A stretch of DNA of 64,000 nt from a virus (Duplodnaviria; Caudoviricetes). Numbering within the stretch: position 1 is the first letter of the stretch; each line of letters begins with the position of its first letter. Positions 6,826 to 61,058 of the stretch are shown in pieces. A program made the position numbers and the translations under genes. The notes beneath the pieces are model-generated. The model was given only the letters and a program-made list of their open reading frames with translations, was not told where the DNA came from and searched no databases. The stretch lies in the IMG/VR virus record IMGVR_UViG_3300042196_000418. One strand, 5' to 3'.

Positions 6826-7070
6826 AAAGACAACGACGAGCTGATCGCCCGAGGGCGCCGCATCCGCCGCGCGAAGAGCACTCATGCGCGATGAAATCGC
6901 CTAGTGGCGTCGGAGGTCGAGCGTTTACGACGTTCACGTGATCATGGATTAGGGTCAGGAGTTACCTGGGTATATTCGTACCCATCCTGTCGTACTTCCA
7001 GCCAAAAACCGCTTGCACGCTTGCGACAAGATCCTTAAAAAGAAATGAACCGTCCACCCGACAGGAATTC

Positions 7071-8009
7071 ATGAAACGCGCTCTCCTTCTCACTTTTGCT
7101 CTCACTGTTTTGTCGGCATGTGCCGACGAAGTCCCCCCAGGAATCGTGCTTGGCCGTGCCTTGGTCACCGCATGTCCGGTCGCAGCTGCGAACGATGCTG
7201 CTGCACGCGAGGCGTGTGCCGATGCACTGACCGACATGACCGAGCTACGCGACGCACTGACCGATCCGGTGCTGTGGGGAGGACAGCCCGATGGCTTCCA
7301 CGCCGCCGATCTTCTCACCGACGCGAGCCTCACCCAATTCGATCCGCGCGTCTGGCGACGGATGTACTTGTCGACGTTCATGTTCGAAGCTGCTCCGTCC
7401 GAGATGGAGCAGGATGGCAAGTACCAGGTGCTCCGCATGCGCGTGCAGTTCCGCAACAAGCTCGATGCGGGCGACTATCCGTATCCGTTCTGGCACAGCG
7501 GCAAAAAGTGGACGGCCTATGAACAGGCAACCGAGGTACTGTTCGTCTTCGACAGCGCCGGCCGAATTCCGGTGGCAGTGCGCACAACACCCGATCCAAC
7601 GCACGAGCATGATCCTCGGACGTGGGATGGCGTCTGGACATGGAACGCTGGTCAGGAGCCCCACGTCTCTTTGTATACGTACCTGTTCTCGCCCGGAAAC
7701 CCGCACGTCGCGGCGCTCGACACGGCGTATCGCAGCCTTGAAGAGACGATGCGCGAACAGGATTGCAGCAAGTGTCACAGCCCGTCGAACAGTGCGATGG
7801 CCCTGCATCTGGAATTGCTCAACTATCCGAATCAAGCTCTCACCGCACGGCACAAGATCGCGCATCTGATCCAGATCAACGCGATGCCCCCTGTGACCGG
7901 CATTCCAAGCGACGACACGCGTGCCGATCTGATTCAGCGGGCCATGACCTTCGCCAATGCCGGCGATGCAGCCTTGGCGTATGAAGGCGAACCCGTTCCC
8001 TCGCTATAG
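7071..8009 (+). CDS. Lipoprotein with c-type heme motif (cytochrome c-like)
   Basis: Signal peptide and lipobox LSAC; CSKCH; downstream MPP (possible axial Met); AT-rich upstream region. Confidence 0.7.
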   Translation: MKRALLLTFALTVLSACADEVPPGIVLGRALVTACPVAAANDAAAREACADALTDMTELRDALTDPVLWGGQPDGFHAADLLTDASLTQFDPRVWRRMYLSTFMFEAAPSEMEQDGKYQVLRMRVQFRNKLDAGDYPYPFWHSGKKWTAYEQATEVLFVFDSAGRIPVAVRTTPDPTHEHDPRTWDGVWTWNAGQEPHVSLYTYLFSPGNPHVAALDTAYRSLEETMREQDCSKCHSPSNSAMALHLELLNYPNQALTARHKIAHLIQINAMPPVTGIPSDDTRADLIQRAMTFANAGDAALAYEGEPVPSL

Positions 8010-8083
8010 GTGAAGGTGCTCGTGGCGCTGTCTGCCTGAAGCCTGCACCCAAAGGATCCTCGTGGCAGCCGAATGCTGACTAC

Positions 8084-8162
8084 TGCGTCGGCGACAACCA
8101 CCTGAAGGCGTGTCCGGTCGAACGTGCCACACACCAAGGTCGAGCAGCTCCGTGCTGGCTGA
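8084..8162 (+). pseudogene. Decayed copy of the 3' end of gene 6613..6825
   Basis: Translates as CVGDNHLKACPVE..., frameshift/deletion, ...KVEQLRAG*, against CDGDNHLLECPVE...KVELLRAG* in the intact gene. Confidence 0.7.
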
Positions 8163-8203
8163 CCAAGCGCAACAACCTCCAAGAAACCATCAAGGTCCCG
8201 CAA

Positions 8204-9112: not shown

Positions 9113-9279
9113 CAGGCCCGCCCGACACGACACGGGCCGCAAACGGAGAAAGGAGAACGGAGAACGGCACGATCCACTCCCGGGAAGCACACTTCGAGTC
9201 CCGTCTATTTTCCGGGAACCGCGGATTCGAGTCCCGTCCGAGTCGTACGGTCATCTCGCCACGCTTATAACTAGGTGCG

Positions 9280-9789: not shown

Positions 9790-9836
9790 CAGCACTGATC
9801 CCACCAGCCTGGGCAGACCATCACCTCGTCGCGCAC

Positions 9837-10295
9837 TTAGCGGCAGCCGAGACCAACGCGTCGACACGCGAGGGCCTTGTCCTCGGCACACGGCATAAAA
9901 TCTTGTCCGCTCATGATCCCGCACGCCGTGTGCGTGCTCGTATCGAGCACCGCGTGCCCGACCTCGTGGGCAAGAGCCACCCACAACCCGAAGCCGGTCA
10001 AGTCCGCGCGTATCTGGATACGACGCTCCAACCTGTTCGTAACGCCGCCCGCATTTTTGGGCGTTTGTGCCACGCGCTCGACGAGCACGGCCGAAATCTG
10101 ACCCCCCGTCTTTACACGGACAAGTCCGATCGAGGCCCAGCCAACGAGGGCCTTGTCCAGATCAGCCTCCAGGGTTGGATCCGGCACGATCAGCTCAAAA
10201 GTCACGCGGCCTGTCTGCTGCCCCGACGGCAAGGAGCGCTCCGGCAGATGACAGCACGCGAGCAGCAACACTACGAAGATCATGCCTGTGCGCAT
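9837..10295 (-). CDS. Putative lipoprotein zinc metalloprotease (matrixin-like)
   Basis: Signal/lipobox LLAC, AHEVGHAV and downstream GIM (Met-turn-like). Confidence 0.6.
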   Translation of the reverse strand: MRTGMIFVVLLLACCHLPERSLPSGQQTGRVTFELIVPDPTLEADLDKALVGWASIGLVRVKTGGQISAVLVERVAQTPKNAGGVTNRLERRIQIRADLTGFGLWVALAHEVGHAVLDTSTHTACGIMSGQDFMPCAEDKALACRRVGLGCR

Positions 10296-10324
10296 GCTTT
10301 ACAGAATGGCACGAGCGCGCGGCT

Positions 10325-10543: not shown

Positions 10544-10719
10544 AGTGTTTAGTGTACACCATTGGGCACGGATGGGTGCGTAGATACCCATGTCCCGGTG
10601 CGACGTCTTGAGTGTGCCCCAAAAGCCTCAGGTTCCCCAATACCCACCCCTCTTCCTCAAAAGCTCGATCAACGTTCGGTAATCACGCGCGTCGATGCGC
10701 GGCCCGCGAGAGCTGCTCG

Positions 10720-10788
10720 GACAAAAGTAGAACGGCGTCGCGACAGAAGTAGAACAGCCTCTACCTCAAAACTCGACAGAAGTAGAAC
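10720..10788. repeat. Left subterminal repeats: GACAGAAGTAGAAC x3 and CTACCTCAAAA
   Basis: Copies at 10720 (one mismatch), 10742 and 10775; CTACCTCAAAA at 10761. Confidence 0.85.
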
Positions 10789-10895
10789 GGGCTAACGGCG
10801 TCACGGCAGACGGGATACGCGGCGACCCACGTGTTCCGACATTCACGATCACGTGGCGCGCTAGAGACGGGGTTCGCCGACACCCCGGCGCTCCC

Positions 10896-11210
10896 TTACC
10901 AGCCGCGTTCGCGTTTGTTCCGCGCCCACTGCTCGCGCTGCTCGCGACGGATGCGCCGGGATTCCTCTGCGGTGAGGTCAAGCACGATGGGACCGGGCAT
11001 GCTGTTCAGGATGTCCATCGTTCGCACGAAAAATAGCGCGCGATCGACATCGATGAGCCGTTCACCGTTTGCAGCTCGGGTCGGGCGAAGGATGTCGTCG
11101 ATCCTACGAATGCGCGCTGCGGTCCATCCCAGCATGCGCGCGACGGCATGGATGGTCACGACGTGCTTCGAGCCCACGGGCGGCATGCGATTGGGATTTC
11201 GCTGGCGCAT
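10896..11210 (-). CDS. MerR-like HTH protein
   Basis: TIHAVARMLGWTAARIRR...PTRAANGERL pattern. Confidence 0.5.
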   Translation of the reverse strand: MRQRNPNRMPPVGSKHVVTIHAVARMLGWTAARIRRIDDILRPTRAANGERLIDVDRALFFVRTMDILNSMPGPIVLDLTAEESRRIRREQREQWARNKRERGW

Positions 11211-11268
11211 CTGCCGTTCGTAAGGCGCACGAGGCTAGACCGCAATGGCAGGCGAGATCCCGGGCTAC

Positions 11269-11697
11269 CTACTTCTTGCGCAGTGCTTCCGCGATCTCGG
11301 CATCGAGCTGCGCCGACGTCTTGCGGTCCGTGCGATGCCCGACGAGAACTGTCGCGGTACGTAAGCCGTGGCGATGTGCCGTAAGCATCCGATGCGTACC
11401 GTCGAGAACAGTGCCGTCATCGAAAGCCAAGATGGGACTTGCATGGAGAGCTTTTGCGAGTCCGCCGCGCGCCTTCGCCCACTGCTCGATGGTTTCGATT
11501 CGATCTAGATCGTCTTTATCGAGTGGTTGTCGCGCGTAGTCTTCAAGCGTTCCGACACCTGAAAAACGGAACCACCCTAAGGGACGCTTCTCTTCTGTCC
11601 AGGGCAGATCAAATTCATCACCTTCGAGAATGAACTCGGCGTCTGGCGATCTTGTGGTGACGTCGTTAACAACCTTCAGACCCTTCACGCCCGTCAC
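11269..11697 (-). CDS. ParB/Srx-like domain protein with C-terminal AQLDxEI motif
   Basis: PILAFDDGTVLDGTHRM; ends KTSAQLDAEIAEALRKK. Confidence 0.7.
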   Translation of the reverse strand: MTGVKGLKVVNDVTTRSPDAEFILEGDEFDLPWTEEKRPLGWFRFSGVGTLEDYARQPLDKDDLDRIETIEQWAKARGGLAKALHASPILAFDDGTVLDGTHRMLTAHRHGLRTATVLVGHRTDRKTSAQLDAEIAEALRKK

Positions 11698-12216
11698 TCA
11701 CGCGCACTCAACGCGGTTGGTGCGGCACCATTCGTAGGCCGCGTCTTTCGCTGCGGTCATCGCAGCCTTCTTGCTTGAATAGCCGCCTTCGGCGACGAGC
11801 GACTCGGTGAAGCTGCCCGTGTCGCTGTCGACCGTGGCGAGCGCCCACCACGTGCCGCCCTTCTTCAGCGCTCCGTAGTACACGCCGTCGCCTTTGCTGC
11901 CCATGTACTCGGCGTCGTCCCAGTCGAGGTGCGGCGGCGCGCCGTACTTCGCCTGCGTCTTTGAATAGGCGCTTTCCGTCTCCGGGATCTGTTCGGTGAC
12001 AGTGAAGCTATGGGCGCCCTTTGATTTCTCGTTGAGCACGTGGACTGCCGCGCTGTCCTTGATGAGACCGCGTGGATCGGCGAGGAAGTATTCGCGCACG
12101 TAAGAAGGGATCTGCGAGCCCTTCTTCCATTTCCCTTCGCCGCGCTTTACCGCCAGCAGGCCAAAGCCTGAGATGGCTCGTTGAACCTTTGCCGTCCATG
12201 TCGATTCAGACTTCAT
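11698..12216 (-). CDS. Hypothetical protein
   Basis: Clean, coupled ORF. Confidence 0.65.
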   Translation of the reverse strand: MKSESTWTAKVQRAISGFGLLAVKRGEGKWKKGSQIPSYVREYFLADPRGLIKDSAAVHVLNEKSKGAHSFTVTEQIPETESAYSKTQAKYGAPPHLDWDDAEYMGSKGDGVYYGALKKGGTWWALATVDSDTGSFTESLVAEGGYSSKKAAMTAAKDAAYEWCRTNRVECA

Positions 12217-12422
12217 TTGTACCGAACCTCGTCGATATGCTCAGCCGCCTTCTGGACGGCCTGCCACGCCTTGTCGAGGGCCTTATAGGTGGCCGGCGGA
12301 GCGGCGCCTTGTAGCGCGAATGCTTGGGTGAGTTCGCCCTGCACCTCGCCCAGCAGCTCGAAGATGAGCGTAAGCTTCCCGTACATCGCAGGGTTGTTTC
12401 GTTTCGCCTCCGTGCTCGCCAT
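12213..12422 (-). CDS. Hypothetical protein (probably leaderless)
   Basis: TACCAT 6 nt upstream of the ATG; coupled to the next gene. Confidence 0.55.
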   Translation of the reverse strand: MASTEAKRNNPAMYGKLTLIFELLGEVQGELTQAFALQGAAPPATYKALDKAWQAVQKAAEHIDEVRYK

Positions 12423-12485
12423 GCAGCGATGGTAACAAAACGACTGGACTTTCGTCCATTTTGTTACCGTCGAGTCGCACGTCTG

Positions 12486-12758
12486 CTAGCCGATCACCTT
12501 CCCGCAGTGCGGGCACGTCGGCTTGGGCAGCGCGATGCCCTGGATCACGTCGTGGAGCGACACCTCCAGGAGCTTGGCGATGCGGAACGCGATCGTGGTG
12601 CTCACCTCGGAGCGCCCCGAGGTCATCTCGACGCGCTGGCTGTGCGAGATCGGCAGCGCGCGCTCGACGGTGAGCCAGTTGCCGAAGCGAGCTCGCAGCG
12701 CGCGTAGCGTATCGAGCACGTTCTGCTGCTCGATGCGGGACAGGTCGCGGTACGGCAT
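12486..12758 (-). CDS. XRE-like HTH protein with CPHC zinc knuckle
   Basis: Helix pattern ...SEVSTTIAFRIAKLLEVSLHDVI...CPHCG; directly downstream of the transposase. Confidence 0.6.
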   Translation of the reverse strand: MPYRDLSRIEQQNVLDTLRALRARFGNWLTVERALPISHSQRVEMTSGRSEVSTTIAFRIAKLLEVSLHDVIQGIALPKPTCPHCGKVIG

Positions 12759-12760
12759 GA

Positions 12761-14125
12761 CTACTCGATCTCCTTCGGACGATCGAACCGTGCACGCGTT
12801 GTCTCAGGAGGCTGCATGCTTCCGAAGTCAGGCAGCTTGGCGATCAGATCTTGCGCCCAGTAGCGCGGATCGACGTTCAGCTCCTGCACTGCCGTGATGA
12901 GCTGCGCGATGTTGTGACAGACGAGGCGGAGCATCACCTCCGCGCACTGCGCGTTCAGGGCACGCGATCGGAGCGCGTGCCCGAACCGCGACTTGATGGA
13001 ATTCATGCCCGCCTCGGCCAGCGTGCGCCAATCGTAGTTCTCCCAATATAGGTCCTGGTCGTCTTTCATCCTGTTGTAGAGGCGACCGACGGTCTCGGGC
13101 TGGGTCTTCCCGGTGACGTTGTCTCGAAAATCAAAGAACGGCGTGGCGCCGATCTCCTCGACGGCGAGGACGTTGTACCAAGAGTTGTAGGCTGAATCGC
13201 CCAGCCACTTGGCCACGCGCCCGCCGTTGGCCACGATGCGCCGGACCAGCTCGGGCATGAGCGGGCATTCACCGATTTTATCCGTGACCTGCGCAGCGGG
13301 AGCCACGAGCGTCCGCACGCCAAAGACGATCGTCGCGTTGAGCCAGCGGTGCCTCAGCGTGGGAAGTCGTTGCTGCTCTTCCTTCCCGTGCTTGCGCGTG
13401 AAGTGGTGATCGTACACAGAGCTTCCGAAGCCGGTACCGTCGATCGCGAACGTGTCCTCAAGACCGATGAGCGGCAACGCGGAGCCCGCGAGGAGCCGAT
13501 GGAGCAGCACCATGTGCTCGGGCTCTGCGAACACGCGGAGCAACGTGTTGTAGGACGGCACCTGCGTCATGCGGATGAGACCCGCCTTGCAGTAGAGCTG
13601 GACCTGGACAACAGCCTCAGCGGCGGTCAGGTTCTCGAAGGCTCTAATCAGCGCGGTCAGCAGGACATCACGCAGCGGAATTGCGGGCCGACCATTCTCG
13701 CCGATCACGCGACCACTCAACCCGAGGCCGTCTACAAGCAGCTCGCAGTAGTGGGGAGCCAGGTGCGGGATCAGCGTCCGGCAGGCATTCGTCGCCTTCC
13801 AGTCGCGCGTGAACGCCCTCCTTAGCTCCTTCGGCTTGCGCGGCTTCTGCGTCACGATCAGCTCGCTACCGTCCGCCAGCTTCAGGACGTGAACGACGGC
13901 CCAAATGTGCTTGCAGCGATGGGGTCGATCGTGGCCACCGAGCCGGGACCAATCGAGGCACGAGCATGTCTCGGCCTTCGTGTCGACGACGTAGGTGCTG
14001 CCGTTGCTCGCTGCGCTCGGCACGAGGTACTTCGCGCCGACCAGAACCTTGATCGCGTCCTTCTTTGCCTTGGCGATCGCAAGACCCCGCTGCGAGCGGA
14101 CGTCCGAGGAGATCTCTTCGTTCAT
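12761..14125 (-). CDS. Transposase: N-terminal SWIM zinc finger plus IS4/IS5-superfamily DDE domain
   Basis: CSCLD...CKHIWAV (SWIM); AIDGTG, LGDSAY, YDWRTLAEAGMNSIK (YREK-like) and LVCHNI. Confidence 0.9.
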   Translation of the reverse strand: MNEEISSDVRSQRGLAIAKAKKDAIKVLVGAKYLVPSAASNGSTYVVDTKAETCSCLDWSRLGGHDRPHRCKHIWAVVHVLKLADGSELIVTQKPRKPKELRRAFTRDWKATNACRTLIPHLAPHYCELLVDGLGLSGRVIGENGRPAIPLRDVLLTALIRAFENLTAAEAVVQVQLYCKAGLIRMTQVPSYNTLLRVFAEPEHMVLLHRLLAGSALPLIGLEDTFAIDGTGFGSSVYDHHFTRKHGKEEQQRLPTLRHRWLNATIVFGVRTLVAPAAQVTDKIGECPLMPELVRRIVANGGRVAKWLGDSAYNSWYNVLAVEEIGATPFFDFRDNVTGKTQPETVGRLYNRMKDDQDLYWENYDWRTLAEAGMNSIKSRFGHALRSRALNAQCAEVMLRLVCHNIAQLITAVQELNVDPRYWAQDLIAKLPDFGSMQPPETTRARFDRPKEIE

Positions 14126-14208
14126 GATATCTATTGTATAGCTGGTAGATATGACAGATCATGGAATTGACTCCGTGCGCTAACCGATATACAAGCGCTA
14201 TCAACAAC

Positions 14209-14427
14209 ATGGCGACCAAGACGAAACCAGCGGCCAAGAAGGACACGTCGGAAAAGAAGCGCCGCAAGGCCGTACTCAAGGACAAAGGGATCCTGGTCCG
14301 CGTCACCGCAGACGAGAAAGAAGCGATCGAGGCGGCAGCGAAGAAAGAGCACCTCGCCGTCTCGACATGGTTGCTGACTGTGGCGTTTCGCGAGATCGAG
14401 AGGCAGGCGAAGGCCGCTGCGAAGTGA
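14209..14427 (+). CDS. Ribbon-helix-helix DNA-binding protein
   Basis: ILVRVTADEKEAIEAAAKKEHLAVSTWLL; divergent from the transposase. Confidence 0.7.
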   Translation: MATKTKPAAKKDTSEKKRRKAVLKDKGILVRVTADEKEAIEAAAKKEHLAVSTWLLTVAFREIERQAKAAAK

Positions 14428-15306
14428 TCAGTTCAGATCGGATCCTTCCTCCGAGACGGGCACGGTCAGCGCGTACAGCGCTCCGTGCTCGTTCGCGCCG
14501 TGGAACGCGATGACGCCCTTCTCAAGTAGGCGCAAGAGATCATGCCTGAGCGTCGCCTCATTGAGCTTGCGGCCCTTGCGATGCAGACGGCTCTCGACCT
14601 GGCGCGCAATGAAACGCTGACCCAGCGGCAGACTCTCGTTCGAGAGGACGTCGACAATCATCGCGGGGATCGAGTCGACGCGCGCCGCGACGTCAACGCC
14701 AGGAAGCGCCCACGTCGTGTTGTGGTGCGCGCCGTGACGCTGTATTCGCTTCTTGCGCTCAAGGTACTTCAAGAGGCTCCAGACGTTTGGGAGCGCCAGG
14801 CGAATCCTCTTTGCAATCTCGCTCGCCCGGAGACCTGTCCGATCAGCGTCGAGAAGCTTGAGAATTCGATCCGTGTGCTTTTGAGCTGGCCTCTTGTTTC
14901 CAGGCTCGCGTAGTCCCGCGCGTTGAAGGCGCCTTCGGAAGTTGGTGCGATCGACGCCTGCGATGCGCGCTGCATCGCTAATGGTGCCGTTTGACTGTTC
15001 CATGATGCGCGTGAGGTGATCGCGCTCGATATCTTCGGCCGCACGGCGCTTGGCCACCTCGATCGGTACATCAGTCGGCGTCTCGATCGTGGGCTCGGCC
15101 GTCGGCGTCTCGATCATGGGCTCGGGCGTCGACGCGGTAGTGGTGCCCGCAGCGTTCGTAGCGGCAGCGAGCCTTTCCTCGATCTTGAAGTAGATTGCCT
15201 CGCACTGATCGTCGGTGAGCTTGTCCACCGCTGCGATTGCAACCGCGAGCAGCTCGGCCTTGAGCAAGGCAAACTGGCGGGCCTTCTCGCGTGGGTTCGT
15301 CGGCAC
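14428..15306 (-). CDS. Fis-type HTH plus winged-helix DNA-binding protein
   Basis: ERDHLTRIMEQSNGTISDAARIAGVDRTNFRRRL followed by wHTH-like segments; 27-bp tandem repeat in the linker. Confidence 0.7.
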   Translation of the reverse strand: MPTNPREKARQFALLKAELLAVAIAAVDKLTDDQCEAIYFKIEERLAAATNAAGTTTASTPEPMIETPTAEPTIETPTDVPIEVAKRRAAEDIERDHLTRIMEQSNGTISDAARIAGVDRTNFRRRLQRAGLREPGNKRPAQKHTDRILKLLDADRTGLRASEIAKRIRLALPNVWSLLKYLERKKRIQRHGAHHNTTWALPGVDVAARVDSIPAMIVDVLSNESLPLGQRFIARQVESRLHRKGRKLNEATLRHDLLRLLEKGVIAFHGANEHGALYALTVPVSEEGSDLN

Positions 15307-15373
15307 CCATGTGATTTCGCACGACGACGCATCACGAAAGCCTGCGAATGATCTCGCGCTTCGTGACTCGGGC

Positions 15374-15514
15374 AGTAACAGATCGGGCTGTCGGCCGCGT
15401 TGTTTTGTTACCTTCGGATGCCCTAGGTAACAGAACGGGTCGGTCGAGCGTCTGATCTGTTACCTATCGGCGCGTCGAGTAACAAAACGGACCGCTGCGA
15501 CGGTGTTTGTTACT
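15374..15514. repeat. Three inverted-repeat units RGTAACARA...TYTGTTACY with 52-bp period
   Basis: Units at 15374-15412, 15426-15464 and 15478-15514; a fourth unit at 12431-12468. Confidence 0.8.
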
Positions 15515-16112
15515 CCCTGTGTTGGGAAAGGTACGTCGTCAAGGTGCGTGGCTTGAAACGCTTCCCGCGTATCCCGCCCTCGTAGAGTCGCTGGGACATC
15601 TCGGTGGCGCCGACCTCCCATTCGAGCATCTTCAGGAAGACCTCGTGCTTTGCGACCGACGGTGTGCGTCCTGCCTTCGACGGCCAAAGCTTGTCCAACT
15701 GCTCTGCGTGCCATTGCAGCGTCGTTCGGATCAGCTCGGCCGCGTCCAGGAGCGTCGCGGCTTGCCGTCGAAGATTCTCGCGTATCCCGCCTTCCACGAG
15801 CTGATCGAGACGGCCCTCGGTGAGTCGCATATGCGGGCCGTCGTGTTTCCACTTCAGCTTGTCCAGGATCACGCTGCGCGCGTAGCGCGAAGGTTTCACG
15901 TCGCGAAGCTGGTACTTGAAGGTACTGAGGCCCTCTAGAAGATCGGCGCTCCGATGAGCAGCGTGGCCTTCTCTCTCGATCATGTCCGCAAGCCTCGTCG
16001 CCTCGTCGCGGAACTTCTTCTTGTCGAGATCGCAGACAACCGAGATCCAGGCGGTCAGCGCTTTCCAGTCCTCTTTCGTCGCAGGCTCGAACTTGCGCTG
16101 CTTCTTGGCCAC
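15510..16112 (-). CDS. Hypothetical transposon cargo protein
   Basis: Clean 200-aa ORF inside the TIRs. Confidence 0.65.
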   Translation of the reverse strand: MAKKQRKFEPATKEDWKALTAWISVVCDLDKKKFRDEATRLADMIEREGHAAHRSADLLEGLSTFKYQLRDVKPSRYARSVILDKLKWKHDGPHMRLTEGRLDQLVEGGIRENLRRQAATLLDAAELIRTTLQWHAEQLDKLWPSKAGRTPSVAKHEVFLKMLEWEVGATEMSQRLYEGGIRGKRFKPRTLTTYLSQHRE

Positions 16113-16269
16113 TTGCCGAGATCGTCGAACGGCCGATCGCGCGGCGCAAAAAAGAGCGTGGCGTTTCGTCGGTTACGTAAGCACGTCGAGAAGTGCGCAA
16201 CCCTGAAAAGGAACGAATGCAGACGCATCCCTTCGAGACCGAGCTGCGGCTCTTTTCCGGTCGCGCGCT

Positions 16270-16349
16270 GTTCTACTTCTGTCCGCTACCTCAAAAGGCG
16301 ACAGAAGTAGAACTGCGCAGCGTTCAACTAGAGTCGCGTTACCTCAAAA
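16270..16349. repeat. Right subterminal repeats: GACAGAAGTAGAAC x2 (one inverted) and TACCTCAAAA x2
   Basis: 16270-16283 (reverse) and 16300-16313; TACCTCAAAA at 16287 and 16340. Confidence 0.85.
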
Positions 16350-16432
16350 CCCATGTCGGTTCCCTAAAACCCCCGATTTCCGACGAGGTTTTGGGGCACA
16401 CTCACGACGTCTTCCCGTATCACTCCTGCAAC

Positions 16433-16510
16433 GGGTACCTTGATACCCAGGTGTCCTTGCGCGGACTTGCCTGCTTCACTGGGCTTTCCCAGCCCGGCAC
16501 GCTGCGTGTA
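16433..16510 (+). promoter_or_regulatory. GGGTA-N6-TACCC palindrome plus sigma54-like box
   Basis: Palindrome 16433-16448; cGGCACGctgcgtGTa at 16495-16510, 14 nt before ATG 16523 (GT in place of GC). Confidence 0.65.
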
Positions 16511-38087: not shown

Positions 38088-38209
38088 TGCGCTCCGCGTG
38101 CCGAGACCGGCACGTGCAACACCGCGATCATAGTGCCTGGGTGTCGCAGTACCTGGCTCGGAACGAACACGCTGGCCGTGACGCTCGAGAGACGGGTATG
38201 CAGGTACCC
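38088..38209 (-). promoter_or_regulatory. Sigma54-like box plus palindrome pair
   Basis: cGGCACGcggagcGCa (38103-38088); palindromes at 38139-38154 and 38194-38209, 55 bp apart. Confidence 0.7.
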
Positions 38210-41688: not shown

Positions 41689-42297
41689 TCAGGAGAGCCC
41701 CTTCCCATTAGAACCACCGTGAATCGCGCACCCTGCGTCACGACAGCCGCCTGCCTCGGACAGGATCGCGCTCGCGAGCTTACTGGCCAGTGCGGCGCTC
41801 TCGTCGGAGACGTAGGACAGCTCGTGGTAGCCGCTCACCGAGTAGCCGATGAGCTGCGCGAGCTGCTCCTCATCTTCCTGCGGGAAGTCTTGCGTACCGG
41901 TCCAGTTCAGACCGCCGTCGGAACGCGCTGGGAAGTCGGGATACACCCTGCCGCGTTCGGTATCACGATCGAGGAGTGCGTCCACGATCGTGTTCTTGCG
42001 GAAGCGGATGGTACCGCGTGCGTCCACGTGGACGGGCTGCATGGGATGCGGATCATAGCCCTTCAGTTTCTTCCCGCCGCCGAGCAGCGGAAGCGTGGGC
42101 CGCGTGACGCGGAGACCGAGAAGCTGTGCGAACTGCATGTGATCTTCGGGCGGAGCGTCGAACTTCACGATCTGACCAAGAGCGCCGCCATCGCGGTCGA
42201 ACAAGGCTCGAACGATCGCGTTCGCGCGGAAGCGAACCACGCCGTGCTCGTCTTGGATGACAGGCTGCATGGGATGGGATGGCAGCTCTTTCTTCAC
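41689..42297 (-). CDS. Hypothetical protein with duplicated HPMQPV domain
   Basis: HPMQPV...RFR.N.IV.AL.DRD...AQL.G occurs twice. Confidence 0.7.
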   Translation of the reverse strand: MKKELPSHPMQPVIQDEHGVVRFRANAIVRALFDRDGGALGQIVKFDAPPEDHMQFAQLLGLRVTRPTLPLLGGGKKLKGYDPHPMQPVHVDARGTIRFRKNTIVDALLDRDTERGRVYPDFPARSDGGLNWTGTQDFPQEDEEQLAQLIGYSVSGYHELSYVSDESAALASKLASAILSEAGGCRDAGCAIHGGSNGKGLS

Positions 42298-42707
42298 GAG
42301 GATTTTCTCCCCCAGCGCTTGAGGCGCTTGGGGCGCGGCGCCATCTTGACGAGTCCGTGCCGCTGGAGCAGCCGACGAAAGTTCGAACGATCGACACCGG
42401 CCAAGAGCGCAGCATCCACCGCCGATCCCTTCGCGGACTCCATCGCGCGCACGAGATAGTTGCGCTCGAACGCGGTCGTTGCCAAGCGCTTCGCTTCGGT
42501 GAGCGGCATCAAGGTCCAGTCGACGATCAGTTCGAGCTGACGTGCATCAACCGCGATCGGCAGGCTCCAGTGCTGCTGTGCACCGCGCCAGCGGCAAATT
42601 CGAAGTTGCCCGGAGCTCTTGGAGGTGCCGACCACGATCGCAGCACCCTTGGAAGAGGTGCGCATACGATCGTAGACGATCTGGCCGATCAAAAGGCTGG
42701 TCTTCAC
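42294..42707 (-). CDS. Fis-type HTH protein lacking an AAA+ domain
   Basis: FERNYLVRAMESAKGSAVDAALLAGVDRSNFRRLLQRHGL. Confidence 0.75.
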   Translation of the reverse strand: MKTSLLIGQIVYDRMRTSSKGAAIVVGTSKSSGQLRICRWRGAQQHWSLPIAVDARQLELIVDWTLMPLTEAKRLATTAFERNYLVRAMESAKGSAVDAALLAGVDRSNFRRLLQRHGLVKMAPRPKRLKRWGRKSS

Positions 42708-43525
42708 GCTGCATCCTCCGTTGCTGGCAGCGCGAGCGGCAGGTCGGGCAAGACCTCAGGCGCATGCTCGGCCAGGAACACACGCCACGATCCTGGCTTC
42801 TTTTCTCCGCCACGCGTGCCCTTGACGCCACAGCCCCACAGTCCCTGGATCTTGGTCAGGCGTGGCCGGGCACGATCCTCCATCGCGACTGCACGGCGTG
42901 CGAGATCTGGGTGCTTCTTCGCGAGCTGGATGAGTTCAGCGGGCTTGAGCGACGGACAAAACCAGCAGCTCGACTTCGGTGGCACTGGCAGGCCCGCGGC
43001 GGCGATCTCCTTCATGCACCGATCACGATCCCAGCCCCACTCACGCAGGGGATAGATCCAGTTCCACGGCCCCTTGGTCTCGACGCCACCACGGCGCGAG
43101 TCGCATGGGCCCGCGTCGTAGCCGATCGCGCGACGGACCTTGCCGCCGGCCTTGATGTGCGCAGCGAAGTAGTCGGCGCAGGCGGCGTCGAGCGGCTCGC
43201 CCTTCCACTTGAGCGAGCACTTCTTGTAGCCGAACGCGAGCGACGGCAGCGTTTGGTTCACGAGGCAATTCTCCTCAAGCGTCGCGTAGTGCCCGTGCTT
43301 GGGCCGCTGCACGACGTACTGCACGTCGGTGATCGTCGGGAAGCCCACCTCGGCGAGCCACTTGTCGATGATCGGACGGTACGCGTAGGTCTCGGGCCAC
43401 TCGTTGCCGACCTGTGCGTGGCCGATCCAATGCGGTCGGATGCCGAGACGCCACCAGCCGACGAGCACTGCGGTCGAATCGACGCCCATGCCGTACGAGA
43501 GAGCCAGTAGATTGCCTGCGCTCAT
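42704..43525 (-). CDS. PAPS-reductase-like PP-loop protein 1
   Basis: SYGMGVDS, CSLKWK, YPLREWGWDR and PPKSSCWFCP. Confidence 0.8.
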   Translation of the reverse strand: MSAGNLLALSYGMGVDSTAVLVGWWRLGIRPHWIGHAQVGNEWPETYAYRPIIDKWLAEVGFPTITDVQYVVQRPKHGHYATLEENCLVNQTLPSLAFGYKKCSLKWKGEPLDAACADYFAAHIKAGGKVRRAIGYDAGPCDSRRGGVETKGPWNWIYPLREWGWDRDRCMKEIAAAGLPVPPKSSCWFCPSLKPAELIQLAKKHPDLARRAVAMEDRARPRLTKIQGLWGCGVKGTRGGEKKPGSWRVFLAEHAPEVLPDLPLALPATEDAA

Positions 43526-46011: not shown

Positions 46012-46809
46012 TCACGGCAGCACGATCCCCGCCTCGCCGATCGCGAGCTTTTGCGCCTGAGTCAGATTGTCGACGAGGCCGCACTTGTTACACGCCATGC
46101 CCACGAGCGCGCGGGTGACCTGGTCGGCCGTCGAGTGGACGTCGCCGATCGGAAAGCAGTTGCTCGTCTCGCCGGCAACAATCGTCCCGTCGCACGAGAT
46201 ACTCGGCGAACAGTTGCCCGACATACCGAGCGCGGCCCGCGCGCGCAGCATCGTCAGCGCGGCGCGAACGTCGCCGAGCGAGCGCGTGAGCGAGCGCAGA
46301 TTGAACGACGTAGGTCCCTTGCGAACGGGCAGGCCGTCCTTGCCAGAGTGAGCGCGCGCAGGCTTCATGCGGCCGAGCGGAATCAGGATCGAGAGCGTCG
46401 GCACGAACACGACACGTGGATCGTCCGTCGGAACAGCCGTCGGCCGCCTTGGATAGAAGCGTGGATCGTTGGTGATCTGCACCATCAGGCGCGGCCATTC
46501 GGGCCGCAGGATCTTCGCCCGGAGCGTCGGATCGTCGAGCCACATCCCGTTGGTGATGAGGATGACGTCGTACCCTCCGTCAATCACCGTCGAAAGGAAC
46601 CACTCGACGTCGGGGTGCTCGGTAGCCTCGCCACCGCTGATCAGGATCCGGCGCGGAATGCCCGAACGCCACGCGTCGCCTTCGAGACGCTCGGTGAGCG
46701 CGAGCGCAGCAAGAAAAGTCTCGCGCGTCATGTGCTCGCCAGCTACCGTGGACCCCTCGGAGCAGTGGTTGCAGCCCATGGAGCAGTAGTTCGTGATCTT
46801 GATCAGCAC
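46012..46809 (-). CDS. Radical SAM protein
   Basis: CSMGCNHC, ISGGEATEHP, ITNG and a C-terminal Cys cluster. Confidence 0.85.
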   Translation of the reverse strand: MLIKITNYCSMGCNHCSEGSTVAGEHMTRETFLAALALTERLEGDAWRSGIPRRILISGGEATEHPDVEWFLSTVIDGGYDVILITNGMWLDDPTLRAKILRPEWPRLMVQITNDPRFYPRRPTAVPTDDPRVVFVPTLSILIPLGRMKPARAHSGKDGLPVRKGPTSFNLRSLTRSLGDVRAALTMLRARAALGMSGNCSPSISCDGTIVAGETSNCFPIGDVHSTADQVTRALVGMACNKCGLVDNLTQAQKLAIGEAGIVLP

Positions 46810-47576: not shown

Positions 47577-47999
47577 TCACGACGCGACCTCAGAGGTGAG
47601 CGGGATCTCCTTGGTGGGCCAGGCGCCCGGCTCCCACGCGCGACCGTTGTAGCTGATCTTGGCGATCACCTTGGCGCCCTGCTTGACCTCGCCGCCGAGC
47701 CAGTTGCCGCCGCCCAGCTCGTAGTGCTCGATGTACGCGCGGCATGCCTTGCTAGCGTCGGCAAGCGAGGCCACGCGGAGGGTCCGTCGCGGCACGCCAG
47801 GCATCGAGCGACGGCTGTCCTGCCCGAAGTCCGGGTTGCCGACGCTCGCGAGCAGGACCTTGTAGGCACCCTTGGGCGCGACCAGCGCGGCGATCGTGCG
47901 CGTATACGCAGCCTCGTGCTCGCACACCACGCAGGAGGTTGCACCGTACAGCGGAAGGCCGCAGGTGCCACAGGGCGTCTCGGTAGCGTCGAGGTTCAT
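47577..47999 (-). CDS. Hypothetical phage-type protein, operon head
   Basis: GNPDFGQ...GGGNW...ISYNGRAW; ATG 14 nt after the sigma54-like box. Confidence 0.65.
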   Translation of the reverse strand: MNLDATETPCGTCGLPLYGATSCVVCEHEAAYTRTIAALVAPKGAYKVLLASVGNPDFGQDSRRSMPGVPRRTLRVASLADASKACRAYIEHYELGGGNWLGGEVKQGAKVIAKISYNGRAWEPGAWPTKEIPLTSEVAS

Positions 48000-48011
48000 A
48001 CGGACAGGTAG

Positions 48012-48135
48012 AGCAGATCGCGTGCCCAGTCCACGGTCATCGTAAGTGTGCGACCGCGAACGCTGGGTACTTTGTAACCCGGTTCCGCGCTGCGTCGCGA
48101 TCCGTAACGCTCGAGACACGGGTAATTTTCTACCC
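48012..48135 (-). promoter_or_regulatory. Sigma54-like box plus palindrome pair
   Basis: gGGCACGcgatctGCt (48027-48012); palindromes at 48065-48080 and 48120-48135, 55 bp apart. Confidence 0.75.
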
Positions 48136-49854
48136 AGCTCCGCTCGACGGGATCTCGCGCCACTTCGATGCGTACAGCTTCGCGTCGTCTCATCGACGCA
48201 CCTTCGGGCCGTCGAAGCGGTGATGGCACTCCAGGCACCACCAGCGCGAGGTCCCTGGCTGGTCTCCGACGATCGGCTTGCCGTAGTTGCGGAGCGGCAC
48301 CGTGTCCGTGTGGCTGCACCGCGGGCACGCGAGATCGGGAAGCTGTTGTTTCTTCAGCATCAACGCGCGTTGCGCTCCGCAAAGGCCCGCAGCTCCGCGA
48401 GCTGTGCCTCGCGCTTCTCGAAGCGGTGATCCGCCGCGAGCTTCGTTCCGTGCCACCACTTCCGCGGCACGTCACCCTCTTGCCGGATCCGCTGATAGAG
48501 CGTGTCCATCAGTGTTTCGTTCGGGCCGCGTCCGAAGTCCGCGGTGACCGCGAGGTAGAGCTTGTCGCCCTCGCGAAGGAGTTGCGGATTCTTGAACGCA
48601 GCGACGCGCTGCTCTTTCGTCCACATCACGTCAGCTCCGTCAACTCGCCGATCGTCTCGGCTATCCGGCGAACGAACTCCTCGCGCGTCTCCCCTTCCTG
48701 CCAGGTAAGGCGCTTCTTGTACGTGTTCTTGTTCGTGTCGACCTCGACGGTCACGGCGATCTCGCGAATGTGCTCAGCCATGCGGCACCTCCACGTTCGG
48801 ATCGTACGGAATCCGCACCACCGCGCCCAGCCGGTAGAACCTGCCGGGTTCGAGCGGCTTCGCGTGCGGCACGCAGCGCCCACGCCCGCGATCGGCGAGC
48901 TGCTCGATCGTCGGCCGCGCGGCGCGGAGCGCCTCGGTCTCGTCGGCCGCGTCGACCACCGCGAGCGCGATGTCGGGCTCGCCGTAGAGCGTTTTGTCTT
49001 GAATCGTGACGATGAAGATCATCGGCGCCTCCCACGGCGATTCTTGTACGCGTCGAAGATAACGAAGCCGATGACGGCTCCGAGCGCCATGAACGCCACG
49101 AGCCAGGAGAACGCCGTAATGACGAACTCCCACGTGTGATCGCGCCAGGTCATCGAAGCGTCTCCACCGTGACCGGCACTACCCTCGCCGGATAGCTGTT
49201 GTTGAGCCGGTCTGCAATCCGACGCGCCGTCGGTCCGTCGAACACGCTTGCTTGATCGACGTGGCAGTCCCAACGATCCGTCCCGTCGTCGATCCATGAC
49301 GAGAGAAAGTACGGCATGAAGCCGGTACGCTGCACAACGATGTACTTCACGACGGGATCCCCGTCGGAGGCCGAACGAGCCGAAAAGCCCCGTCCTGCCA
49401 ATCATACAGCCAGAAGCGCGGGAACTTGTCCGGGTCACCAGCGTAGGCCGCGTCGACACGCGCGATCAGGTCCCAGTCCTTTGGGTCGCGATCCGTCGGA
49501 TCGATCGGCACCATCCCGTCGAACGCGGAGATGTCTTTCTGACGAAGTCCGTGCGCCTGCATCAACGTCGTCGACGCGCGCAGGATTTCGCGCCACCGCG
49601 GCATTGGCCACGGCACGCGCACGAACATGAGCGGACCCGGGCTGATGACGGTCATGTAGTGCCTCTGCGTCACCGCAGCTCCTCCAGCTGAGAGGGCTGC
49701 ACGCGTACGCTGCGCAGCCCGTCGTCGTCCTCGAATTCGATGACGACGTAGACTCCTTGCGCGTCGCGACCGCGGCGGATGACATGCGCCGCGTAACGAT
49801 CGCCGTCCGAATCGGTCCAGACAACGTCAGGGACGACGTAGCGGCCATCACAGA

Positions 49855-50832
49855 TCACGCAGCCACCGCCGTCCCATCATCCAGATATCCGCATCCCGCC
49901 GCCTTTGTCGCGCGCTGCGCGGCGCCGCACACGGGGCACGGCATGATCTTTCGCTTGTACGGCCGACTCGCGAACACTGGCAACGGAGTACCGGTCTTGG
50001 TCTTCGAATCGAAGCCCATGATCGAGAGCTTGATCCCGTTCTTGGTAGTCGGTGCCTTGCGTGCCTCCAGCTCGACGATCTTGGCGAACACGCGCGGACG
50101 TTCAGCGGCGAGGACCTTCCAATCACCACGTGAACCGTAGGGACATTTCATACAGGCTGATTTCCGGGGCACCGGGTAGCCGCTCGCGCGGGCGAGCGCC
50201 TCGCAGCGACAACGGCAGAGTCCGCGCTCCATGAGCGGGAAGCGATTGACGCGCCCTGCATGAGTCATCGCGAACGCAAGCGCCTTCGTCCACCGCCACG
50301 CGATCGTCAGATCGCGCAGTGGAGCCGATTTGCCAGGCTCGCGACCGTAGCTCGGGCCGCGTGGCTTGCCCGCGTTCGGATCGTTCTCGACGCGGCTCGT
50401 CTCCGCACCATCGAAACCGATCCACACTTCGACTTCCTGGCCGTGGAAGCGATCGTCGAGCCAACGCTCGAAGCGCTCCACCTTGGCGATCCGCGTGCAG
50501 ATGCGGTTGGGCCCGGCGACAGGGATCTGACCCATGTTCCAGAGCCACTGGAACAGCGATCGTGCGGCCTGGTTGTCGGGACGGATCAAGTAGCCCGTGC
50601 GCGCAGAGATCTCGACGAACTCGATACCGCGGGCCGCACACCACGGCTGAACGATCTCCTCAACGTGGCGGTACGTGCCATCCCACTCGCCGGGATGCTC
50701 GTCACGATCGTCAGCATCCCCGACGTCGACGAACGCGACAATGTCGGGCAGTTCGCCGCGAATCTCGGCATCGAGCAGCATCGCCCACGAGTCGAGACCA
50801 CCACCGAGCGAGAGGACCTTGGGACGCTTCAT
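49855..50832 (-). CDS. PAPS-reductase-like PP-loop protein 2
   Basis: SLGGGLDS, CTRIAKV, WIGFD, RFPL and PRKSACMKCPY. Confidence 0.8.
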   Translation of the reverse strand: MKRPKVLSLGGGLDSWAMLLDAEIRGELPDIVAFVDVGDADDRDEHPGEWDGTYRHVEEIVQPWCAARGIEFVEISARTGYLIRPDNQAARSLFQWLWNMGQIPVAGPNRICTRIAKVERFERWLDDRFHGQEVEVWIGFDGAETSRVENDPNAGKPRGPSYGREPGKSAPLRDLTIAWRWTKALAFAMTHAGRVNRFPLMERGLCRCRCEALARASGYPVPRKSACMKCPYGSRGDWKVLAAERPRVFAKIVELEARKAPTTKNGIKLSIMGFDSKTKTGTPLPVFASRPYKRKIMPCPVCGAAQRATKAAGCGYLDDGTAVAA

Positions 50833-51669: not shown

Positions 51670-51891
51670 AGCAACCGCCGCGCCATCCTGACAGCAATGT
51701 GGCTGCACGCCAAGTCCCTGGTCCAAGCCAGCGGGTACTTGTAGACCCAGGGTCTAATATTCACAGATCCCGAAGCGCTCGAGACACGGGTAGCCAGCCA
51801 CTCAGGCACGGGCAATCGCGAGCTTGACGTACCGGGCGAGACCTACGGCGTCTCTTCATAGGACGTGTCAGGTCGTGGAATGCAGGGTGCA
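51670..51891. promoter_or_regulatory. Divergent control region: two sigma54-like boxes and a palindrome pair
   Basis: TGGCGCGGCGGTTGCT (-, 51685-51670); TGGAATGCAGGGTGCA (+, 51876-51891); palindromes at 51733-51748 and 51788-51803 (second degenerate). Confidence 0.75.
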
Positions 51892-57936: not shown

Positions 57937-58215
57937 CTTTGCCGGTGTGCTCTCGTCCCCCGAGTCTCGCTCAAATCCCGCAGAGCTGGAAGATTTCGTC
58001 CTGCACCTTGCGCTGCTCGTCAGAGGTCCAGTCGCGCCAGTCCATCAGCTTGTGCCCGTAGCCCTGAGGGTAGCGACGTCGAAAACCGCTTTCCCAGCAC
58101 ACCTCATACTGCCGCGGTCCCTCGCGTGTCACGACACCGATCCGTAGGCGAATCATGCTAGCGCCCTCGTTGACCAGCTCCTGTACGTATTGCCCGCGCG
58201 TCCGCTTCGTATCCG

Positions 58216-58770
58216 TCATAGCAACGACAGTTGCTCCACGATCTCTGCGGCCCTCTCTGCCGGACGAAGCGCCATCCACAGCACGCCCAGCGTATTCGTA
58301 CCGTGCCACGTCCCATCCGCCTGCCGCGCAGCGCCCCAGAACAAACCAGATTCGTTCGCCCTCGCAGTACAGTCCTCCACGATACGGCGGTTTCCCGTCG
58401 CGCGCAGGGCCTCCAATAACAGCGGATGCTGTTCCAGCTTCAGGCCCAAGATCACGCGCATGTTGGAGATGTCCTGCTCGGAGCGCGGCTGCACGATCAT
58501 CTCGCGTGCATGCTCTTTCGCGATCCTCTTCACCATCATGGGACTCGTCGCAGCCATGATCAGCTTCCTGACCTCGGAGGTGTCAGGGAAACGCTGCGCT
58601 TGGAACGCATGTTCCGCGGTGCGCCAGAGCCCCACCGGATGCGGCGACATGTTGCCGAGCCATCCGTAGGGCTCACGTACCTTTCTGATCACGATGTCGT
58701 CGGTCACGAAACGGGCGCCAGCTCCGAAAGCGGAAAGATCCACGGGCCGCGCCCGATCCGTTTGGTACAT
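58216..58770 (-). CDS. NADAR (YbiA-like) family protein
   Basis: LGNMS, TAEHAFQAQRF, KLEQHP, TGNRRIVE, FWG and GTNTLG. Confidence 0.9.
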   Translation of the reverse strand: MYQTDRARPVDLSAFGAGARFVTDDIVIRKVREPYGWLGNMSPHPVGLWRTAEHAFQAQRFPDTSEVRKLIMAATSPMMVKRIAKEHAREMIVQPRSEQDISNMRVILGLKLEQHPLLLEALRATGNRRIVEDCTARANESGLFWGAARQADGTWHGTNTLGVLWMALRPAERAAEIVEQLSLL

Positions 58771-59507
58771 TCCATGCCTATCCAGTTAGCGCCCGCTGTG
58801 CGCCTTTTCAATGACTGCGTACCCAAGTGCCTGGAGCAGCCTAGGCATCTGCGTGCCAGTTGGCACTTCGATCGTCTTGTAAATGCTGTCAGTAGACGAC
58901 GGAAGCGCGATTCTTCGTCGTGCATCCTTAACGCAATCACCGTCCCATTCAAGCGTGACGCCGACTCGTCGTCCCGCTGCGGTAATCAATGTCGCCAGAG
59001 TGAAGGAACTTTGGTTACTCATTGTAGGCGTCCGTGCCGACGATCCGCTCGATCGCCGCCACCGCACCGTCCGGAAGCATCACGATGTCGCCCGGCCGTA
59101 ACGGATCGTGCTCCTCGCGCGGAGCGAACGTCCTTGGTGTCGCCGCCACGGGTTTCTTCTTCGAGCATGCTTTTCGGGTCACGAGCCCTCTCCACTGCCG
59201 GCCAGCTCCAGCTCCGCATGCACGTACCGCGTCAGCTCGCGCTCGATCGTACCATCCGAGAGGATGGTCGCCGCAAGATCGCCGGTCTTGACGGCGAGTC
59301 GCTCCTGGATCACCGCGCACGCGGCGTCGACGGCACGTTCGACCAGCGCCTCGATCGCGACCTTGCACGTCTGAATCGCGTGCTGTCCGACGTGCCCATG
59401 ATCGCCGCGGAACGAGCGGAGAGCGTTGGACCACGTCGCACTGTCGATGAGGCCGCGGGTATAGAGCACCTGGATCTGGGACTGAGTGAGCGGGGCAGCT
59501 TCCTTCG

Positions 59508-60851
59508 TCACGACACGACCTCCTTCGACAAGATCTTCGACGTCTTCATCTTCTGCGCCTTGCGCGCGGTCTTCTTCGCGAGCGCCTCAGCCTTCGCCGC
59601 ATTCATGGCCATCAGCTCCGCGTAACGGGCGATGATCGAGGCGGCATCGGTGTATTTCACTTCGAGCCCCAGCAACGCCGCGACTGCGAGACGAACCTTG
59701 GCCAACAGATCCGCCTCGTCCGCCGTGGGCATGACCGTCGGCCAGCCCTCGGTATAAAGCAAGTGCTTCGGGATGCGAGCCTCGATCTGCTCACGTGCAC
59801 GAGCACGCTGCTTAGCGGCGGCGATCGCAGCCGCCGTCTCCTCGTCGAGCAACTGCGGGGCAATGTCAGCGAGCCACGACGAGCCCTGGAACGCGAAGGT
59901 CGACGCGATCTCCAGCGCGACCATCGTGCGGAACACCGGTACGTTGTCCTCGCACGTCGTAGACGCGACCAGGTCCGAACGCTGCGCCATAATGCAGTAC
60001 CGACACGAGATCCGACTCATGCCGTAAACCGTGTAGCCCTCGTGGAGATCGAAGCCGCGCGCTGCGCAGAACGCATAGACATCGCGATCGGTCCACTCGG
60101 CGATCGGGTTCCAGTCGAGGCCCGTGGTGCAGGAGCCCTTGTGCTCAAGGCGCTTGTTGCGCTGCGCCGTCTTGGCGCCGCTACGCTGGCGACTCTCCGC
60201 GCGGCGGATGCCAGCGGCCGAAATGATCGTCTGACCAGGAAACCGCTTGACGAGCGCGGCGGCGATCGGCGCACTCTTGAGTTCTGACGTGCAGAACCGC
60301 ATCGAGGGCGTCGACCAGGGGAGGATGACCTTGACGCATTCGAGATTCGCGTAACGGCGACGGTTGTTCGACCAGCGGCCCTGCCAGCGCTTCATCATGC
60401 CGCCGGCTGCACGACGCACGACAATCAGCTCGACGCCGAGCCGGTCTGCGAGGCGCTGACACGTCGGCAGCGAGTCGGTCCATTCGACGCTCAGCTCCGG
60501 GCGCTCGTCGCCGAGGTCGGCGTGTACGAGGATGCGCGGACCGGTGTGGCCGATCGTGTCCAGGTACTCGATCGTCGCAAGGGCGGCGGCGCAGGAATCC
60601 TTGCCGCCGGACACACCGATCGCGACCGGAGCGTTCGCGGCCAGCGCCGCGGCCAAATCGGAGATCGCCGCGATCTCGACCTTGGCCTCCTTGCACTTGG
60701 CAGCTGACGTCGATCGCGCCGCGATCAATGCTTCGAGCTTCGCGATCCGCTCCGAGAGCGACTCGACACCGCGGTCGATGCGACCGGGGAGCCCGAGCGA
60801 AACAAGCTTCTGACCTGGGCTGCATGCCGACATTTGAACCTTCGACATCAT
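59508..60851 (-). CDS. PAPS-reductase-family protein 3 (phage type)
   Basis: VSGGKDS, CTSELK, GIRRAESRQR, PIAEW and RISCRYCI. Confidence 0.9.
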   Translation of the reverse strand: MMSKVQMSACSPGQKLVSLGLPGRIDRGVESLSERIAKLEALIAARSTSAAKCKEAKVEIAAISDLAAALAANAPVAIGVSGGKDSCAAALATIEYLDTIGHTGPRILVHADLGDERPELSVEWTDSLPTCQRLADRLGVELIVVRRAAGGMMKRWQGRWSNNRRRYANLECVKVILPWSTPSMRFCTSELKSAPIAAALVKRFPGQTIISAAGIRRAESRQRSGAKTAQRNKRLEHKGSCTTGLDWNPIAEWTDRDVYAFCAARGFDLHEGYTVYGMSRISCRYCIMAQRSDLVASTTCEDNVPVFRTMVALEIASTFAFQGSSWLADIAPQLLDEETAAAIAAAKQRARAREQIEARIPKHLLYTEGWPTVMPTADEADLLAKVRLAVAALLGLEVKYTDAASIIARYAELMAMNAAKAEALAKKTARKAQKMKTSKILSKEVVS

Positions 60852-60863
60852 GTCCCTCAACTA

Positions 60864-61058
60864 TCCACGCGCGGTGCCAGCGTGAGTACGAGCCTAAGCC
60901 ACTGATCTGACACCGAGGTAGCGCCGCACCCACCCGAGCTCGTGGCGAGCCGGATTCTGGGTAGCTCTCTACCCGTGTCTTGAGCACGCCAATCAGCACT
61001 GCGGCCAAACGGCTTGACGCGAGCTTAGCTTCGGATCACGTCCGGCACGCCGCGAGCA
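60864..61058. promoter_or_regulatory. Divergent control region: sigma54-like boxes and palindromes
   Basis: TGGCACCgcgcgtGGa (-, 60879-60864); cGGCACGccgcgaGCa (+, 61043-61058); palindromes at 60959-60974 and degenerate 60916-60931. Confidence 0.7.

Follow-up and report, generated by a model that had tools for sequence, protein, structure and literature searches.

The window analysed here, 64,000 nucleotides (64 kb) of the IMG/VR virus record IMGVR_UViG_3300042196_000418 (Duplodnaviria; Caudoviricetes), carries a recurring palindrome, GGGTA-N6-TACCC, which an earlier note made from the sequence alone had described as an operator used across the whole element. The window has a GC content of 62.6% and encodes a DnaJ, a radical-SAM protein, fibre- and collagen-like genes, three PAPS-reductase/DndC-like paralogues, and long trains of tiny coupled genes; no match to plasmid or phage collections emerged when 20 kb were searched by megablast. 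Copies of the palindrome (boxes) were found paired upstream of GG-N10-GC sequences of the sigma-54 (-24/-12) promoter type. The resulting unit, which we call a cassette, has a constant order along transcription: distal box, proximal box, GG-N10-GC core, and gene.

Five exact copies of GGGTA-N6-TACCC were present in the window (6968, 16433, 38194, 48120, and 60959), whereas 100 dinucleotide-preserving shuffles gave an expectation of 0.00. With at most one mismatch, nine copies were found against 0.31 expected, the additional ones lying at 10574, 48065, 51733, and 43932. On a gene map based on codon usage, in which two start codons were revised on later evidence, eight of these nine are intergenic in a window with an intergenic fraction of 0.167 (16.7%; binomial P = 5e-6). 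The single coding copy, at 43932, looks like a chance occurrence. These counts bear out the claim of a recurrent motif placed mostly between genes, and the motif is not equally common inside coding sequences. Three degenerate partner boxes (38139, 51788, and 60916) have two mismatches each; their fixed positions, and for 38139 also an orthologous box in related genomes, support their being real sites.

When 21 boxes from the window and its relatives were compared, the arms were fixed and the six central bases were free, which argues for recognition by a protein and not for RNA or DNA pairing or a hairpin. The arms of the dyad are 11 bp apart centre to centre, a distance that suits a dimer with a Fis-type helix-turn-helix (HTH), and a single dimeric DNA binder probably reads all boxes. 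Two other readings of the palindrome were discarded. A hairpin or terminator was rejected because the arms measure only 5 bp, the bases and not the pairing are kept, and the sites lie upstream of predicted starts; a NarL/FruA-type heptamer was set aside because sigma-54 cores need an AAA+ activator. The cassettes of the window comprise the following features, with the strand given for promoters.

10574–10589: C2 distal box, at most one mismatch, separated from its partner by a transposon
16433–16448: C2 proximal box, exact; GG at 16496 follows 63 bp on
16495–16510, plus strand: C2 sigma-54-type promoter whose -12 deviates (GT); start codon 16523, 14 nt past the -12
38088–38103, minus strand: C3 sigma-54-type promoter; start codon 38047 of a conserved 393-aa gene, 42-nt leader
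38139–38154: C3 proximal box, two mismatches; GG 52 bp on
38183–38209: C3 distal box, exact (38194–38209), with extension (38183–38193)
48012–48027, minus strand: C4 sigma-54-type promoter; start codon 47999, 14 nt past the -12 C
48065–48080: C4 proximal box, at most one mismatch; GG 54 bp on
48109–48135: C4 distal box, exact (48120–48135), with extension (48109–48119)
51670–51685, minus strand: C5 leftward sigma-54-type promoter, matching the consensus at 11 of 12 positions; start codon 51657
51733–51748: C5 box, 64 bp from the leftward promoter (as its proximal box) and 144 bp from the rightward one (as its distal box)
51777–51803: C5 second box, two mismatches (51788–51803), with extension (51777–51787)
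51876–51891, plus strand: C5 rightward sigma-54-like promoter with a weaker -24; start codon 51905, 15 nt past the -12 C
60864–60879, minus strand: C6 leftward promoter with a perfect -24 hexamer and GG in place of GC at the -12; a PAPS-reductase-like gene starts at 60851
60916–60931: C6 box, two mismatches; leftward GG 53 bp on
60959–60985: C6 exact box (60959–60974) with extension (60975–60985); rightward GG 85 bp on
61043–61058, plus strand: C6 rightward sigma-54-type promoter; start codon 61071

The sampled operon heads of the element mostly use this one cassette. Cassettes were oriented by the downstream gene before the promoter scan, which yielded seven box-linked promoters of the GG-N10-GC type in the window, with a core closely matching the sigma-54 consensus TGGCACG-N4-TTGCW. 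Five of the seven, and all eight promoters in related genomes, have GG-N10-GC and agree with the consensus at 9–11 of 12 positions. Measured from the start of the proximal box, the GG lies at 52, 53, 54, 63, or 64 bp in the window and at 53, 53, 53, 54, 54, 54, and 65 bp in the relatives. From the distal box the distance is 105–109, 117–119, or 127 bp across six genomes. The far promoter of a shared box pair stands at an offset of 85 and 89 bp, the latter falling out of helical register. Given the density of comparable matches in the window, at least three of eight boxes would be followed by GG-N10-GC at phased offsets with a chance of ~8e-7. No sigma-70 consensus promoter was found in the four cassettes examined for one. 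Two candidates did not survive the mapping: a GGCAC abutting the 38139 box was dismissed as a promoter because alignment with two relatives (L007 and L036) puts the conserved -24/-12 52 bp downstream, and a plus-strand open reading frame at 48168–49139, beyond the 48120 box, was dismissed as a gene because four coupled minus-strand genes with better codon scores lie there.

The three pairs 38139/38194, 48065/48120, and 51733/51788 are 55 bp apart, as had been claimed. This spacing holds for the three pairs of the window and is not a fixed property, since the relatives show 51–55 or 62–64 bp; proximal and distal boxes are 51–64 bp apart overall, and the 60916/60959 pair is spaced by 43 bp. The 16-nt extension on four copies (GCTCGAGACAC) was likewise recovered, with four occurrences against 0.17 expected. 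It is placed between the boxes, on the promoter-proximal flank of the distal box, so that the cassettes at 38139/38194, 48065/48120, and 51733/51788 serve genes on the minus strand and 60959 the plus-strand gene at 61071. The orientation implied earlier is not supported. Distal boxes are asymmetric in general: all 11 cassettes carry an upstream CCT and a downstream GT-N-TC, and 8 of the 11 carry the complete extension. Against viral contigs, the 16-nt extension gave three matches, all attributable to chance (no palindrome, different GC content), and a 26-nt distal motif gave none.

Pieces of five related genomes (L005, L007, L009, L035, and L036; 69–75% identity in the 393-aa protein) were compared with the window. 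Paired boxes occur in intergenic gaps of the relatives as well, and the architecture of boxes plus promoter was found in L005, L007 (twice), L009 (twice), L035, and L036. Alignments of orthologous cassettes from three and five genomes had mean identities of 77% and 68%, within which the box arms and the -24/-12 form invariant islands while the spacers vary in sequence and length. A cassette precedes the 393-aa gene in the window, L007 (9815–10003), and L036 (6335–6532); in L005, L009, and L013 this gene is coupled to its upstream neighbour with no cassette (near 9981–10001 in L005 and L009). The cassettes thus behave as modules gained and lost between relatives.

Such gain and loss, together with the common flanks (extension) of some cassettes, which could indicate common descent, would also suit repeats without a role in binding, whether remnants of promoter duplication or palindromes that arose by chance. 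We regard this as very improbable: no shuffle produced a single exact match to set beside the five observed, only the half-sites and the -24/-12 are invariant while the spacers diverge, and the geometry is kept in six genomes, of which the relatives are not near-identical copies. As a separate observation, the C4-type cassettes of five genomes share a block, ACTT(G/A)CG, ~20 nt upstream of the -24 GG (window 47999–48060 and orthologues). The 393-aa protein (36866–38047) matched nothing in Pfam, PHROG, NCBIfam, or PDB, and has >250 metagenomic relatives, on contigs as long as 430 kb; it is 60–75% identical across dozens of large contigs, and relatives with 40–50% identity occur on contigs labelled Patescibacteria.

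The position of the boxes bears directly on their function. At least 36 bp separate the end of each box from the -24 GG further downstream, and the boxes stand ~70 and ~125 bp ahead of the predicted starts, so that the overlap with or flanking of the promoter that marks a classical operator is absent. This distance indicates an enhancer geometry and not that of a promoter-overlapping operator; paired dyads upstream of the -24, the arrangement of bacterial enhancer-binding proteins (EBPs), were found in six genomes. Of the earlier note's proposal, the single palindromic site type, the dimeric binder, and the regulon over operon heads and divergent regions are retained; the label of operator is not, as the boxes do not overlap the -24/-12, and neither is the orientation. 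We interpret the boxes as upstream activator (enhancer) sites of sigma-54-dependent promoters, with a probability of roughly 0.8. Sigma-54 transcription is strictly activator-gated and has no basal activity. Most operons of the element probably depend on one activator of the NtrC type. The sigma-54 holoenzyme opens DNA only with an AAA+ EBP (PMC7057263).

Two proteins encoded in the window align with the C-terminal DNA-binding domains of EBPs.

42294–42707, minus strand: 137-aa AAA-less Fis/NtrC-type HTH (HTH_8) protein whose recognition helix resembles that of HsfA, a candidate for binding the boxes or competing for them
14428–15306, minus strand: 292-aa transposon-borne protein with a related HTH_8 and a winged helix

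The 137-aa protein is conserved in L007 and L036; the pieces sampled from L005 and L035 lack it and still contain cassettes. A homodimer model of its HTH region scored 0.59 compared to 0.00 for the best control, with runs agreeing in at least 94% of contacts and a pLDDT of at least 77; of 30 proteins whose structures were solved as pairs, 21 reached the mark used, as against none of 23 solved as single chains. The modelling supports a homodimer of the element HTH region, and the pass may reflect only likeness to solved Fis/NtrC dimers. Longer relatives of the 137-aa HTH are activators with REC, AAA, and HTH domains, mostly from Myxococcota, one of which is named HsfA. With a Myxococcus HsfA orthologue, identity was 47% over 64 residues (E 1e-14), and 12 identical consecutive residues span the recognition helix. 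The closest full-length relative of the element HTH, P0121, is encoded on the metagenomic contig L042 (64% GC). Within 2202–5437, this HsfA-like EBP adjoins a divergent AAA-only EBP gene, upstream of which one box lies 71 nt before a GG-N10-GC; the arrangement is suggestive only.

HsfA belongs to the HsfB-HsfA phosphorelay of Myxococcus xanthus, reportedly described by Ueki and Inouye in 2002 and by Volz et al. in 2012. The hsfB-hsfA loci of Corallococcus, Stigmatella, Myxococcus, and Hyalangium share the same gene neighbourhood (4/4), and each hsfB upstream region contains a sigma-54 promoter (4/4) with conserved GGGT-N8-ACCC dyads further upstream, 29 bp apart, as well as a shorter third dyad. 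Dyads and promoter are conserved islands in the alignment (L038 1240–1440; L040 850–1030; L041 840–1040; L037 4255–4410), and elsewhere in the 6.6–13.5 kb per hsfB locus the exact GGGT-N8-ACCC is absent or occurs once. From this pattern, the hsfB-promoter dyads are likely an autoregulatory HsfA enhancer. Scored against these promoters of four genera, the element boxes contain the same GGGT-N8-ACCC core. One published study describes HsfA boxes in PhsfB, PpilY1.1, and PpilY1.3, the shift of pilY1.1 and pilY1.3 fragments by purified HsfA, and repression of pilY1.3 by HsfA (PMC9109919). On the sequence likeness of helix and dyads, we take the activator to be most likely an HsfA-like response regulator of a myxobacterial host, at about even odds. 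The earlier pointer to host EBPs was apt.

Several observations weigh against the enhancer reading or the HsfA lead. Two of the seven window promoters keep the geometry and have a noncanonical -12 (GT and GG), and one box pair stands apart from the remaining boxes.

6952–6983: orphan abutting box pair (6952–6967 with two mismatches, 6968–6983 exact), upstream of the plus-strand gene at 7071

At this pair, no phased GG-N10-GC was found on either strand, nor was a sigma-70 consensus promoter. A more distant relative, L011, had no boxes or cassettes in 21 kb, and no comparable cassettes were seen in the sampled pieces of relatives more distant than L011. The HsfA lead itself came from a search that runs on shared 5-residue words and favours proteins with the same helix. 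Furthermore, the host dyads are 29 bp apart and accompanied by the shorter dyad, whereas element boxes are 51–64 bp apart; the fifth arm position is mostly C/G in the host dyads and A/T in the element, and neither a receiver nor an AAA+ domain is present in the element proteins. Finally, six-frame motif scans of the window and ~130 kb of related loci found neither a GAFTGA-type AAA+ EBP motif nor an RpoN box. The only candidates in the scanned DNA are AAA-less HTH_8 proteins, and the cognate activator must therefore be encoded elsewhere.

With such proteins on the element, the boxes might instead be their own operators, used for repression or in an architectural role, while an EBP with no DNA-binding domain activates the sigma-54 promoters from solution. 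At least two AAA-less HTH_8 proteins are encoded, modelling supports a dimer of one of them, an AAA-only EBP gene does adjoin the HsfA-like EBP on L042, no sigma-54 promoter accompanies the orphan boxes at 6952/6968, and repression by HsfA is on record for pilY1.3 in the study cited above. Nevertheless, the boxes do not overlap the -24/-12, their offsets are quantised by about one helical turn, paired sites at ~-70 and ~-125 are typical of enhancers, and cassettes occur in L005 and L035 despite the lack of the 137-aa protein in their sampled parts. We therefore consider this arrangement quite improbable and retain the enhancer reading.

The same enhancer architecture could be served by an activator encoded elsewhere on the element, in which case the regulon would be an autonomous temporal class (middle or late genes) and no host system would be hijacked. 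Large phages often bring their own transcription factors, the DNA read amounts to 64 kb of the element and parts of related genomes, and the several HsfA-like HTH domains on the element imply that parts of such a gene have been acquired. In addition, the 26-nt extended motif was absent from 185,579 species genomes except for one match where ~4 were expected by chance, located in a metagenome-assembled genome whose box count equals its control. Against this stands the lack of an AAA+ EBP motif in the window and related loci, and we rate an element-encoded activator as unlikely, if clearly less so than the operator alternative.

Under the enhancer reading, dimers of one NtrC-family EBP with an HsfA-like Fis-type HTH would bind both dyads and oligomerise into an active AAA+ ring, which would contact the sigma-54 holoenzyme at the -24/-12 through DNA looping and open the closed complex. 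Spacing steps of about one turn would hold the sites on one helix face, and divergent operons would use one common enhancer pair. The AAA-less HTH proteins, one of them from the operon of cassette C4 itself, could compete for the same dyads; this competition might provide feedback or a temporal switch and possibly affect host HsfA targets too. The motif, with its geometry and conservation, and the likeness of the HTH proteins to HsfA are observed; dependence on sigma-54, the nature and origin of the activator, and a decoy role are inferred from them. The fullest version of this scheme is a giant virus-like element of myxobacteria that relies on host sigma-54 and HsfA to transcribe most of its operons, with HsfA-type enhancers at every operon head, near-leaderless transcripts, and AAA-less decoys that time or shut off both its own and the host regulon. 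We hold this version to be possible and rather doubtful as a whole.

The translation starts add to the uniformity of the cassettes. Six of the seven promoters in the window, like most of those in the relatives, have the start codon 14–15 nt past the -12 C. Sigma-54 transcription begins ~12 nt after the -12 C, so that transcripts with ~2 nt before the AUG are predicted; the sequences thus imply near-leaderless transcripts. For C4, the window and L007 differ mainly at third codon positions downstream of the ATG at 47999, which supports this start codon. The exception is C3, where the 42-nt leader of the 393-aa gene contains AGGAG.

Sigma-54 promoters with NtrC-type enhancers are textbook matter, and what is new here is the setting, the uniform near-leaderless cassette, and AAA-less domains with the helix of the activator. 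Like bacterial sigma-54 promoters with upstream activating sequences of the NtrC family (glnAp2/NtrC; PMC7057263), the cassettes have a GG-N10-GC core, paired dyads ~70–130 bp upstream in a quantised helical register, and common enhancers for divergent promoters. They differ in that they sit on an uncultured virus-like mobile element and head most of its operons, in box-to-box distances of 51–64 bp instead of ~30 bp, in a start codon 14–15 nt past the -12 that leaves almost no leader, and in that the sampled element DNA showed neither a cognate EBP nor rpoN. The MotA-dependent middle promoters and late transcription of T4 (PMC2988020) resemble the cassettes as one recurring cis element that defines a co-regulated set of operons; in contrast, T4-type systems remodel the sigma-70 holoenzyme or use phage sigma factors. 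The HsfB-HsfA system is the closest in detail, through the HsfA recognition helix of the element HTH proteins and the GGGT-N8-ACCC dyads ahead of sigma-54 promoters in four genera. In full-text searches, confined to the searchable literature, no description emerged of a phage or a mobile element that uses sigma-54 enhancer cassettes to run its operons.

Placing most operon heads under one enhancer type would tie the programme of the element to a single ATP-driven switch. If the host HsfBA phosphorelay is this switch, the element would read a host stress signal directly, and the AAA-less HTH proteins would be natural decoy DNA-binding domains on an enhancer network. The cassettes are a compact, portable promoter module of fixed geometry, and a start codon at ~+3 makes them a rare sigma-54 promoter set in which leaderless translation becomes testable. 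The motif may also mark operon heads, and perhaps the host, in this uncultured element family.

The transposon that interrupts C2 accounts for the remaining pair.

10609–16404: transposon between the C2 boxes, with 16-bp inverted terminal repeats (10609–10624/16389–16404)

Its target duplication is 8 bp long (10601–10608 and 16405–16412), and removal of the transposon with one duplicate in silico leaves 10574 and 16433 exactly 55 bp apart, in agreement with the fourth pair proposed earlier. The promoter left behind by the insertion has the deviant -12 (GT). The transposon (~5.8 kb) carries a SWIM + DDE transposase, several small DNA-binding genes, and the 292-aa protein.

Two observations concern other genes and sites of the window. 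The three PAPS-reductase/DndC-like genes (42704–43525, 49855–50832, and 59508–60851) and the radical-SAM gene (46012–46809) lie in cassette-driven operons and may together form a DNA or nucleotide modification pathway. Just upstream of the 292-aa gene, at 15376–15514, three long dyads (GTAACA, 23–25 nt, TGTTAC) recur with a period of ~52 bp, and these may be an operator array of the 292-aa protein itself.

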